From Candidatus Poribacteria bacterium (GTDB lineage Bacteria; Poribacteria; WGA-4E; WGA-3G), in contig OZ243938.1 in assembly GCA_965214095.1 (NCBI GenBank), forward strand, positions 384,001 through 448,000: a stretch of 64,000 nt of DNA. The letters are read 5' to 3'. A model generated the notes under the pieces. It was not told the DNA's origin. It worked only from the letters and a program-made list of their open reading frames with translations, and did not search any database. The first letter of the stretch is position 1, and each line of letters opens with the position of its first letter. Shown one piece after another: positions 24,021-61,286 of the stretch. The position numbers and the translations under genes were made by a program.

Positions 24021-24085
24021 GAGATATATCTACCTTTCATTTTAAGTTTATACAAAATTCATAAGTTTTTACCAGTGATCTCTTT

Positions 24086-24291
24086 TATAGTAAAAACCAT
24101 AATTATTTACACACGACGGTAGGTTCGGTTTCCTAACCGAACCATAGGCGTCAATTTAAGGGGAATTACGTTATAACTCCATGCCGGTAGGTTCGGTTTC
24201 CTAACCGAACCGGTATTTGTTCAGTCTCATAGATGCGGTTAGAAAACCACATCTACCGTGGAGTGTGCAAGTAATTATAGATTTCACTATA
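24086..24291. mobile_element. Composite MITE: TATAGT shell, three GTAG-REP hairpins and a solo IS231-like end at 24143
   Basis: CGGTAGGTTCGGTTTCCTAACCGAAC twice; inverted GATGCGGTT variant ending CTACCG; CATAGGCGTCAATTTAAG fused to the first hairpin. Confidence 0.8.
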
Positions 24292-24305
24292 AACAATGTC
24301 TATTT

Positions 24306-32522: not shown

Positions 32523-32688
32523 TATAGTGAAATGTAAGAATACGTGCACACTCTTCGGTAGATGCGGTTTCCTAACCAAGGCAGAATGCCATAAGCGCAT
32601 TCTGCCTGACTATGAAACTGAACAAACACCGGTTCGGTTAGGAAACCGAACCTACCGTAGTCCGTAAATAATTATGAATTCTACTATA
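32523..32688. mobile_element. TATAGT-shell MITE with REP doublet (inverted relative of 24086-24291)
   Basis: TATAGTGAAAT...ATTCTACTATA; CGGTAGATGCGGTTTCCTAACC and GGTTCGGTTAGGAAACCGAACCTACCG; extra AGGCAGAATGC..GCATTCTGCCT hairpin. Confidence 0.8.
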
Positions 32689-32714
32689 AACCATATTTTC
32701 CATTAATTGCTCTG

Positions 32715-55841: not shown

Positions 55842-56060
55842 CGGTAGGTTCGGTTTCCTAACCGAACCATGGGCGTCAATTTAGTGTAAATTAGGCGTTT
55901 TCCCCAGACTGGTAGGTTCGGTTTCCTAACCGAACCGGATCCTACGCGAGAACCTCTATGAAGGTATTTGGCACAAAGCCGGTTCGGTTTCCTAACCGAA
56001 CCTACCAGCCCTGGAAGGACGCTAAACTGACACCTATGGTTTCGTTCCTCAACCCAACCG
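55842..56060. mobile_element. REP hairpin, IS231-ended MITE (55868-56038) with two internal REPs, then half of a second REP family
   Basis: CATGGGCGTCAATTTAG ... CTAAACTGACACCTATG; right flank GTTTCGTTCCTCAACCCAACC resembles the 29.3-kb REP. Confidence 0.8.
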
Positions 56061-59599: not shown

Positions 59600-59698
59600 T
59601 GCAATATAATGTTGTGGGGTGGTTCTACACCATTCCACATAGATTTAGTGTAAATTAGGCGTTTCCCCAGGACGGTAGGTTCGGTTTCCTAACCGAAC

Positions 59699-61186
59699 CA
59701 TAGGCGTCAATTTAAGGATGCACCAAGACCGATAAGTGTCAACTTTTAATCAGAGAAAGTATAAATTATGAAATAAAACTTCTGTAAAAATGAAAACACC
59801 TCATATATAATGTAGATATAGATTTATTATGGTCTACAAAGAGGTGTTTCCTAATGAATACATTATCACAAGTTCCCAAAGAAATGCAACATATTCTTAC
59901 AACTATAGCCAATGATGCAGCTCTCAATACAGGTTTTGTCAAAAGAAGTTGTAAACTCAACGGTAGTCGTTTTGCTCAAATACTCATTTGGACTTGGTTA
60001 GAAAACCCAGATGCCACCTATACACAACTTGCGCAAACCGCTGGTGTGCTGGGGATTTCAATCTCACGACAAGCCATTGAACAACGATTTACATCTGAAG
60101 CAGCAGAGACCCTGAAAGTTATCCTTGATGCTACTGCGTCCAAGGTTATTTCTGCCGACCCGCAAACGCTTCCGCTCCTTGAAAAGTTCACTGGTGTCTA
60201 TTTACAAGATAGTTCTTGGATTACACTCCCTGATGTGCTCCACGAAACTTGGGAAGGTGGAAGCAAAAAGAATAAACCGAACACAGCTGCCGTGAAACTC
60301 CACCTGCGTTTTGATAGTGCCACAGGCACTTTTGAACACTTTGAACTGACCAATGGTATCACCGCTGATAGTGCTATTGAAAAGCAGATTGACATGCTAC
60401 CCGCCGGCAGTTTGCGCCTCGCAGACCTCGGCTATTATTCACTTGATACCTTCAAAAGACTTTCCGATGCAAACGTCTTTTGGATATCACGCTACAAAGT
60501 CCAGTGTTTTCTCTATGATGAAACAGGTGCCCCTTTTTGTTTGCTAAAATGGCTCAAGAAGGGTTCTAATAACTTCAAGGACAAACAAATCTTTATAGGT
60601 AAAAACAAGCGTCTCAAAGCACGATTAGTTGTTCAAAGACTTTCAGAAACAGAAACCCAACAGCGTATTAAGGAGATAAAACATCGTGCAAAGCGGAAGT
60701 ATACGAAACCTTCACCCAAACGACTTCAGCTCGCAAGATGGAATATCTACATTACTAATATAAAAGTAGACCATCTGACTGCTGAACAGATTTGTGCTGT
60801 CGCACGCATCCGATGGCAGGTTGAGTTGATGTTCAAGTGCTTCAAAAGCATTGGAAAAGTTGATACCTCCCGTAGCGACAAGCCATATAGAATCTTATGT
60901 GAGTTATATGCAAAACTCATCGTCGCAATTATGCGGCACTGGATCATGTTAAGGGTCGGTTGGCGATGTCTAAAACATAGTCTAACAAAAACAGCAGAAC
61001 TTATTAGCACCTTCGCACGCACACTTGCAATAGGTTTCCGCAAGTCTATAATGTCTTTTCGGCAAACTTTTGATGAAATAAAACACGCTTTCCAAAATGG
61101 GTGCTACATTGAGAGACGTGCTAATAGAGACACAACATTAGAACACCTTGAAAATGCAGCAAAAAATCACTAAATTGACGCTTATG
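59699..61186 (+). mobile_element. IS4-family element with IS231-like ends
   Basis: TIR CATAGGCGTCAATTTA / TAAATTGACGCTTATG; flanked on both sides by the same 20-bp REP hairpin. Confidence 0.9.
59854..61173 (+). CDS. IS4 family transposase
   Basis: LQDSS, LADLGY, ITN, RWQVELMFKCFKS. Confidence 0.92.
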   Translation: MNTLSQVPKEMQHILTTIANDAALNTGFVKRSCKLNGSRFAQILIWTWLENPDATYTQLAQTAGVLGISISRQAIEQRFTSEAAETLKVILDATASKVISADPQTLPLLEKFTGVYLQDSSWITLPDVLHETWEGGSKKNKPNTAAVKLHLRFDSATGTFEHFELTNGITADSAIEKQIDMLPAGSLRLADLGYYSLDTFKRLSDANVFWISRYKVQCFLYDETGAPFCLLKWLKKGSNNFKDKQIFIGKNKRLKARLVVQRLSETETQQRIKEIKHRAKRKYTKPSPKRLQLARWNIYITNIKVDHLTAEQICAVARIRWQVELMFKCFKSIGKVDTSRSDKPYRILCELYAKLIVAIMRHWIMLRVGWRCLKHSLTKTAELISTFARTLAIGFRKSIMSFRQTFDEIKHAFQNGCYIERRANRDTTLEHLENAAKNH

Positions 61187-61286
61187 GTTCGGTTTCCTAA
61201 CCGAACCTACCGGTACTGGAAGGACGCTAAATTGACGCTTATGGGTGGTTCTACACCATCCCACATAGATTTAGGATAAGCAGGCT

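Follow-up and report, generated by a model that had tools for sequence, protein, structure and literature searches.

In the sections of the IS4 family survey that set out its hallmarks, insertion sequences (ISs) of this family have a DDE catalytic triad spaced D(60~110)D(100~150)E and a target duplication of about one helical turn, with direct repeats of 7-13 bp across all subgroups and 10-12 bp in the IS231 subgroup, whose ends carry the signature CAT-------AA--TAA (De Palmenaer et al., 2008, Table 1; PMC2266710). The same sections describe duplications far beyond one helical turn for IS1634 and IS1549 (IS1634 family), relatives of the IS4 family in which the repeats vary from 8 to 514 bp among copies (PMC2266710). 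Non-autonomous derivatives of IS231 that are moved in trans appear as MIC231 in the relevant passages of a later account (PMC6199540). Other ISs are known for targeting repetitive extragenic palindromic (REP) sequences: for ISRm22 (IS4 family), ISPpu9, ISPpu10, ISPa11 and ISPsy8, the passages on IS-REP association place most or all copies at one fixed REP position, and ISRm22 has a palindromic target with the insertion point on the palindrome axis (Tobes and Pareja, 2006; PMC1525189). Here we describe a complete 1488-bp IS (59699..61186, + strand) in a 64,000-nucleotide (nt) stretch of DNA, the window, from a sponge-associated Candidatus Poribacteria bacterium (contig OZ243938.1, positions 384,001 to 448,000); the window is part of a 5.2-Mb contig of 41% G+C, to which coordinates prefixed C1 refer. 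Very probably, this is an active IS231-like element of the IS4 family that duplicates 20 bp of its target, concentrates in REP-type hairpins and leaves a whole hairpin on each side, with MITEs (miniature inverted-repeat transposable elements) served by the same enzyme.

The element shares with the IS231 subgroup (IS231A/C, ISBth4 and ISBce2, of the Bacillus cereus group) a DDE transposase encoded by a single open reading frame (ORF), the end signature and a symmetric, G/C-ended duplicated segment, which in the one IS231C copy used as a control is the 11-bp TGGCGGTACCC. IS231A is reportedly partial to a GGG-N5-CCC target and to the ends of Tn4430. The window element departs from this subgroup in duplicating 20 bp instead of 10-12 bp, one more helical turn; in its distance from the named elements (26-28% identity to the nearest by tblastn, IS231C, ISBth4 and ISBce2, whereas many pairs within the subgroup exceed 50%); in its hosts, Poribacteria and Chloroflexota, not Bacillus; in an alanine that replaces the YREK motif's tyrosine; and in its 171-bp MITEs, which, unlike the IS231 derivatives, carry no genes. 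As in the type 1 association of REP-targeting ISs, 10 of its 13 genomic copies lie at the identical REP position, with three elsewhere. However, the REP-targeting ISs, as far as the passages on them go, split the REP and leave duplications of 0, 2 or 6 bp (PMC1525189), whereas here the cuts bracket the whole 20-nt REP, which is copied intact. Nor does the repeat length range as widely as is described for IS1634 and IS1549: it is fixed at 19-21 bp.

The duplication at the insertion site

The IS lies between two copies of a 20-nt REP-like hairpin, GTTCGGTTTCCTAACCGAAC, which has an 8-bp stem and a TCCT loop: the left copy at 59679..59698 (+) and the right one at 61187..61206 (+), with equal loop orientation. 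Eight exact copies of this hairpin (0 mismatches) start in the window at 24123, 24191, 32632 (minus strand), 55848, 55916, 55982, 59679 and 61187, against 0 expected from 100 shuffles. The sequence CATRGGCGTCAATTTA begins at 24143, 55868 and 59699, always at the first base after a hairpin copy, and its inverted partners terminate at 56038, 61186 and 61243. A first-pass annotation of this DNA had pointed out both that CAT(A/G)GGCGTCAATTTA directly follows GTTCGGTTTCCTAACCGAAC at these three positions, which is correct to the same junction base each time, and that the 1488-bp IS stands between direct hairpin copies, as it indeed does. It had also seen the IS as occupying the spacer of a REP doublet, with either a long duplication or a replaced spacer.

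Why should an IS be framed by two identical hairpins? The genome holds 13 full-length copies of the IS (98.3-100% identity), and a perfect 20-bp direct repeat surrounds all 13. In ten, the duplicated 20-mer is of the REP type: the hairpin itself or GTGCGG...CCGCAC, a compensatory variant of it. Among these ten, the copy at C1:3684192 has one mismatch in the stem and another has its loop reversed. In the remaining three (IS copies at C1:4200153, 4265783 and 4400707) the duplicated sequence is unique and non-palindromic. Comparison with an empty allele, which the first-pass annotation had proposed, bears this out at C1:4400707: the site is uninterrupted in the related genomes G009 and G007, where the 20-mer occurs once, and the flanks of the IS map to overlapping positions, 2014-2213 and 2195-2393, the overlap being exactly the 20-mer. 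Because the 20-bp repeats are perfect in 13 of 13 copies, unique targets included, and empty sites agree, the hairpin pair reads as a duplicated single hairpin; judged from the sequence, it is a 20-bp target-site duplication and not a doublet with a replaced spacer. The long duplication foreseen in the first-pass annotation has thus turned out to be 20 bp, and the genome-wide table of flanks that it had set as a test gives this length, in place of ordinary short duplications, for all 13 IS copies, ten of which are in hairpins. Two of the IS copies at unique sequence, C1:4265783-4267269 and 4400707-4402194, interrupt ORFs whose frames run on across the insertion if one of the two duplicate 20-mers is taken out; to the eye, the first or second of these ORFs is WD40-repeat-like and its counterpart helicase-like.

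The rest of the doublet claim fares worse, and it is most improbable that the IS replaced the ~46-bp spacer of a pre-existing REP doublet. The canonical 171-bp MITE does carry two internal hairpins 46 bp apart, and the outer MITE at the window locus lacks that centre. Yet in 32 of 35 aligned copies the loops of the MITE's two hairpins are opposite, TCCT in the first and AGGA in the second, whereas the pair around the IS is identical in each of the 10 REP insertions; moreover, a full MITE at C1:2355717-2357396 retains its 46-bp centre intact while the IS sits in one of its hairpins, and it is that hairpin which is doubled. Three IS copies, besides, duplicate unique sequence. It is scarcely credible, either, that repeat-induced misassembly produced the arrangement or that the hairpin belongs to the ends of the IS. 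Contigs assembled from public runs break at every repeat and bridge no junction, as such an artefact would have it, but each of the 13 copies has outer flanks of its own, all on a single 5.2-Mb contig, and contig depth agrees, at 11-13.5 times the flanks for the IS interior in three public runs; furthermore, three copies have no hairpin, and related genomes show the same architecture. No short-read contig joins 59698 to 61187, the form expected of an empty allele, which counts neither for nor against.

Does the length of the duplication belong to this hairpin or to the enzyme? All close relatives of the transposase come from Candidatus Poribacteria assemblies. At 41 related IS loci, examined with the ends fixed at CAT...ATG, the duplication measures 20 bp in ten, 19 bp in 11, 18 bp in seven and 17 bp in two; nine have none, and in two the ends were not found. 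Poribacterial copies at 84-90% amino acid (aa) identity duplicate 20 bp in six of six cases, five in hairpins and one in unique sequence. A group at ~55% identity duplicates 19 bp when the target is unique sequence. It does likewise in another palindromic repeat (stem GTCGGGT/ACCCGAC, 13-nt loop), where the cuts fall within the stem, symmetrically about the dyad, and it duplicates 20 bp where variants of this repeat have a loop of 14 nt; a group at ~49% identity makes duplications of 17-18 bp. All five of five Herpetosiphon copies, which are at 35% identity, show a 19-bp duplication, the duplicated segment starting with GG (TGG in one) and ending with CC; where it lies near a hairpin, it is not centred on that hairpin. 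A second Herpetosiphon plasmid match was set aside as a partial copy. A Tangfeifania relative (Bacteroidota) at 27% identity shows an 11-bp duplication in one example. For the other relatives at 26-30% identity (L042, L043 and L046-L051) the ends were not found within 400-bp flanks, so that the 11-bp class rests on this one Tangfeifania copy, one IS231C copy and the published range. Since duplications of 17-20 bp occur at varied targets in relatives, the long duplication is a trait of the subclade, not tied to one hairpin. These relatives also speak against targeting at the hairpin base, which the first-pass annotation had proposed: the related genomes have another, longer hairpin as target, and it is cut within its stem.

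Target choice and the preference for hairpins

Tabulation of element ends with at most two mismatches gave 163 in the genome. A REP-type 20-mer adjoins 90 of them, in strict form at 72 and in degenerate form at 18; the other 73 have neither. In this last group, position -20 is G in 51 of 73 and position -1 is C in 59 of 73, with weaker signals for G/T at -19 and -18 and for C/A at -3 and -2. The consensus of non-hairpin targets is symmetric, GKK-N14-MMC, i.e. 5'-G(G/T)(G/T)-N14-(C/A)(A/C)C-3', and there is no signal at -21 and beyond; because it stops at -20 in ends that lie outside REPs, it is independent evidence of a 20-bp stagger. These flanks are no more self-complementary than random 20-mers (1.70 versus 1.76 of seven inner pairs complementary), so that a hairpin is not required. 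As the flanks read, the hairpin is a preferred but not an obligatory target.

How much of this preference follows from the sequence of the hairpin? A weight matrix trained on the 73 non-REP ends alone scores the REP 20-mers at 5.7 and 7.2, the 99.99th percentile of the genome being 5.8. With all 20 positions, the matrix predicts a REP share of 4% genome-wide and 28% when long ORFs are set aside; restricted to the eight positions that are informative, it predicts 1% and 9%. The observed share is 55% of ends (90/163) and 77% of IS copies (10/13), a roughly 2-8 fold excess over the model of sequence plus neutrality. The preference is real and goes beyond the sequence model, crude as that is; the excess may come from structure, a bound host protein, contacts with inner sequence or selection.

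It is quite improbable that a weak end consensus suffices, with selection removing the other insertions and REP-borne copies multiplying along with the small elements that carry them. The 20-position matrix goes some way towards it, giving REPs 28% of the weight outside long ORFs, and many hairpin-end junctions are found within repeated composite elements. However, the IS copies are recent, as their identity of 98.3-100% implies, and two still interrupt ORFs (one checked against relatives); ten of the 13 lie in REPs, in at least eight contexts. Because the REP contexts differ among IS copies and one repeat type was struck in both orientations (C1:1455897 and C1:2742881), the REP-borne copies count as independent events.

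Structure-directed targeting, favoured by the first-pass annotation, is rather doubtful. In such a scheme, the transposase or a bound host protein would recognise a cruciform, a single-strand hairpin or a bendable dyad, and not the sequence of the target ends. REPs are struck 2-8 times more often than the most generous prediction from sequence plus neutrality (at p = 0.28, the chance of at least 10 hits in 13 is ~4e-4); diverged relatives strike another palindromic repeat, centred on its dyad, and their duplication grows from 19 to 20 bp when the loop of that repeat gains 1 nt; and the orientation of the IS relative to the asymmetric loop is 9:1 (two-sided binomial ~0.02). On the other hand, the duplication is still 20 bp at unique, non-palindromic targets, the 73 non-REP flanks pair internally no better than random sequence, and the 19-bp GG...CC duplications of Herpetosiphon sit off-centre from nearby hairpins; neighbouring-position support or a neutral location could also supply the excess. 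On the original proposal the evidence is divided: hairpins are struck more often than a sequence-only model allows, yet targets outside hairpins give the same 20 bp and are no more self-complementary than random 20-mers.

The transposase and its small derivatives

The transposase gene (59854..61173, +) is the only ORF of the IS and fills it; its DDE-type product has 439 aa. The catalytic residues D119, D191 and E324, 72 and 133 residues apart, are invariant in nine aligned relatives; the protein thus has the DDE spacing of the IS4 family, and like others of that family it is encoded by a single ORF. It matches PF01609 (1.9e-22) and the NCBIfam model NF033592 (IS4_1; 195.4 bits, cut-off 115), with the NCBIfam IS1634 model below threshold (28.7 bits, cut-off 100). 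In a structure model built from nine sequences (predicted local distance difference test score, pLDDT, 74.9), the predicted fold has Tn5 transposase 1muh_A as its best Foldseek match (E 2.2e-9), and the top five matches are all Tn5 transposase (E 2e-9 to 1e-7, template modelling score ~0.45); a phmmer search of PDB sequences returned no match at E up to 1. The terminal inverted repeats are CATAGGCGTCAATTTA on the left and, read inward, CATAAGCGTCAATTTA on the right. The left end, CATAGGCGTCAATTTAAGGA, fits eight of the eight specified positions of the IS231 signature, and the right end has TAG where the signature has TAA; the ends are IS231-like, just as first described. By these characters the element is classed as an IS231-like IS of the IS4 family with 171-bp MITE derivatives. 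It shows the other IS4 hallmarks that were tested, the exceptions being the YREK tyrosine, which is an alanine, and the duplication length, which at 20 bp in 13 of 13 copies lies outside the 7-13 bp of the family.

How might a transposase of this kind arrive at 20 bp? Tn5-type DDE transposases work as dimers, by cut-and-paste or copy-out, and the length of the duplication made by a DDE transposase reports how far apart its two active sites lie on the target that it has captured. As the duplications show, the two joining sites here are 19-20 bp apart. The enzyme would join the ends of the IS across a stagger of 20 bp, or two helical turns where one is usual. Each half-complex would read one GKK/MMC half-site, as suggested by the symmetry of the consensus and by the one-base flexibility that tracks loop length, and gap repair would copy the segment between the cuts into the 20-bp duplication. 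A 20-nt REP would present a pair of suitable half-sites, correctly spaced and in neutral DNA; insertions may concentrate there because the hairpin fits the consensus at both ends and has the exact length.

The same enzyme would move the 171-bp MITEs in trans. Of the 35 MITEs that measure 160-190 bp, 18 are flanked by a duplication of 20 bp, two by one of 19 bp and one by one of 21 bp. That the MITEs carry both the hairpin and the ends of the IS, as first noted in the window, is true of the genome at large: ~164 of 510 hairpins (summed classes), about a third, lie inside MITEs of this family. Because each MITE carries two hairpins, each MITE that hits a hairpin would seed three more landing sites. 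Hairpin copies next to an element end number 76, and 18 of these have the interior of a same-family MITE on their other side; nested MITEs and arrays of 58-bp half-MITEs exist (e.g., C1:1562320-1562616 and C1:2057070-2057414). The spread of landing sites by MITEs fits these counts; we infer that it would also carry weight in the spread of the transposase.

Several observations weigh against this account. Short-read contigs break at every repeat, and none bridges an IS junction by 31 nt. The expected REP share of 1-28% is rough because the matrix comes from 73 ends and coding DNA was masked crudely, as every stop-to-stop stretch that stays open for 360 nt or more; furthermore, the preference is confounded with the purging of gene insertions, as all the insertions seen have survived selection. 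By the criterion used, 14 of the 35 MITEs have no clean duplication, nor have 9 of the 41 related IS loci. All of these may be hybrid, nested or decayed copies, and at three of the nine loci (L007, L028 and L034) inverted flanks suggest recombination between copies. In the window itself, the MITE at 55868..56038 has the hairpin on its left and another repeat, GTTTCGTTCCTCAACCCAAC, on its right, 14/20 identical and without a clean duplication; it is probably a hybrid or converted copy. The YREK motif, Y(2)R(3)E(6)K, is also imperfect: R320, E324 and K331 are invariant in the aligned relatives, but the tyrosine position is A317 in the window protein, V in two relatives and Y in five of the nine aligned. 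Thirteen near-identical copies suggest that the transposase is still functional despite A317. The relative L006, at 84% identity, likewise has an alanine there. Lastly, full-text searches turned up no paper describing such a duplication, and ISfinder, which lay outside that search, may already list it.

The hairpin family and the history of the locus

The hairpins are a large population: the genome has 360 strict and 510 relaxed copies of the 20-nt consensus GT(T/G)CGGTT-TCCT-AACCG(A/C)AC, and 470 of the 510 lie outside long ORFs. GGTAG, the tag of GTAG-class REPs, precedes 327 of the 360 strict copies. In being short, palindromic, present in high copy and marked by GGTAG on one side, they resemble the GTAG-tagged REPs as characterised in the relevant parts of Di Nocera et al. 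(2013; PMC3733652); they differ in that much of the family resides inside MITEs and that a dedicated REP-associated tyrosine transposase (RAYT) flanked by the hairpin was not found. Of five Y1-transposase loci of this genome, none lies within 1.5 kb of a standard copy (at most two mismatches); with three mismatches allowed, a stem-variant 20-mer lies 230 bp upstream of one. In relatives, 2 of 27 Y1 loci have a single hairpin copy within 1.5 kb, by a strict pattern that would miss variant hairpins. Four near-identical 141-aa ORFs for IS200-type Y1 transposases (C1:81623, 2170036, 2385609 and 4230081) have no standard hairpin flanking them; a fifth, partial Y1 gene at C1:2666075 adjoins copies of a second palindromic repeat, GTAGGTCGGGTAGAGGCACGA..CCCGAC, the repeat that, in other Poribacteria, the related IS chiefly targets.

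A second MITE family accounts for ~146 of the 510 hairpins. Its representatives in the window (24070-24300, and 32540-32700 on the minus strand) have ends like TTTATAGTAAAAACCATAATTATTTACACAC, and each carries the 20-nt hairpin and a second, related one. Genome-wide, hairpins are commonly spaced 42, 58 or 65-68 bp apart (66, 15 and 124 pairs, respectively), a pattern suggestive of arrays that grow and shrink by recombination between hairpins. At C1:2057070-2057414, a full MITE is followed by three more tandem 58-bp units, each made up of a terminal repeat, 22 bp and a hairpin.

The window locus is layered. From the outside inward it consists of a 31-bp direct repeat, a short MITE, the inner arms of that MITE, the hairpin, the IS and the hairpin again. 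The limits of the feature in the first-pass annotation (59618..61274) coincide with the outer edges of the 31-bp repeat, to which that annotation does not refer. The left copy of the 31-bp repeat (59618..59648, +) comprises the 20-bp duplication of the outer MITE followed by the 11 bp CATAGATTTAG, and the right copy (61244..61274, +) has one mismatch to it; the repeat encloses the short outer MITE, whose left half (59638..59678, +) has a terminal repeat without 6 bp (CATAG------ATTTAG) and whose right half (61207..61243, +) ends in the terminal repeat TAAATTGACGCTTATG. Before the IS arrived, this MITE had a single hairpin, which capped a long imperfect palindrome, and it is in this only hairpin that the IS sits. 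The first 20 bp of the 31-bp repeat behave like the MITE's own duplication; the 11 bp of the left CATAGATTTAG resemble a MITE terminal repeat minus 6 bp (59638-59648), and this 6-bp-deleted form of the end occurs once in the whole genome. A 6-bp deletion combined with a chance match, gene conversion between copies, and re-use of the site beside an older remnant were each weighed as the origin of the 31-bp repeat, and none was convincing.

The right copy of the 31-bp repeat takes the place that a terminator-like hairpin occupies in relatives, between the upstream gene and queC, and the order of these two genes is syntenic in G001 and G002; the pre-insertion sequence could not be reconstructed from these two genomes because their intergenic DNA is too diverged. 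On the mechanism proposed above, the short MITE would have entered a terminator-like region upstream of queC, and the IS would then have entered its single hairpin. Elsewhere in the window, the MITE at 55868..56038 (+) is of the canonical 171-bp length, shares the terminal repeats and contains a pair of hairpins with 46 bp between them; the second of the pair has a TCCT loop where 32 of the 35 aligned MITEs show AGGA. A 48-bp half-MITE (24143..24190, +), made up of one terminal repeat and inner sequence between two hairpin copies, lies within a copy of the second MITE family, and its end is of the variant MITE type. A second contig of the assembly (32,066 bp) has 64% G+C, versus 41% on the main contig, and may belong to another organism or replicon.

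What would this mean for the family and its hosts? The duplication is about twice as long as that of known relatives, and landing in a hairpin leaves one intact copy of it to either side of the IS; annotators who meet an IS between direct hairpin copies should take the pair for a duplication, not for a doublet that was there before. A reproducible 19-20 bp from a Tn5-like fold implies another geometry of target capture, either a wider synaptic complex or a sharply deformed target, and in Herpetosiphon aurantiacus DSM 785, which is cultured and has four copies of the IS, this geometry is directly testable. For genome biology, this would be an IS that multiplies REP hairpins rather than destroying them, with MITEs that seed further sites. 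A more far-reaching idea, and in our view an unlikely one, is that the IS231-like subclade of Poribacteria and Herpetosiphon widened its target capture by a helical turn, from one to two, and that its poribacterial members capture the REP dyad as a structure, kinked or extruded, with cuts that follow the stem and not a set distance, in a self-amplifying network of transposase, MITEs and REPs. If true, such a network would be a RAYT-independent route of REP multiplication and would help to build the REP family.

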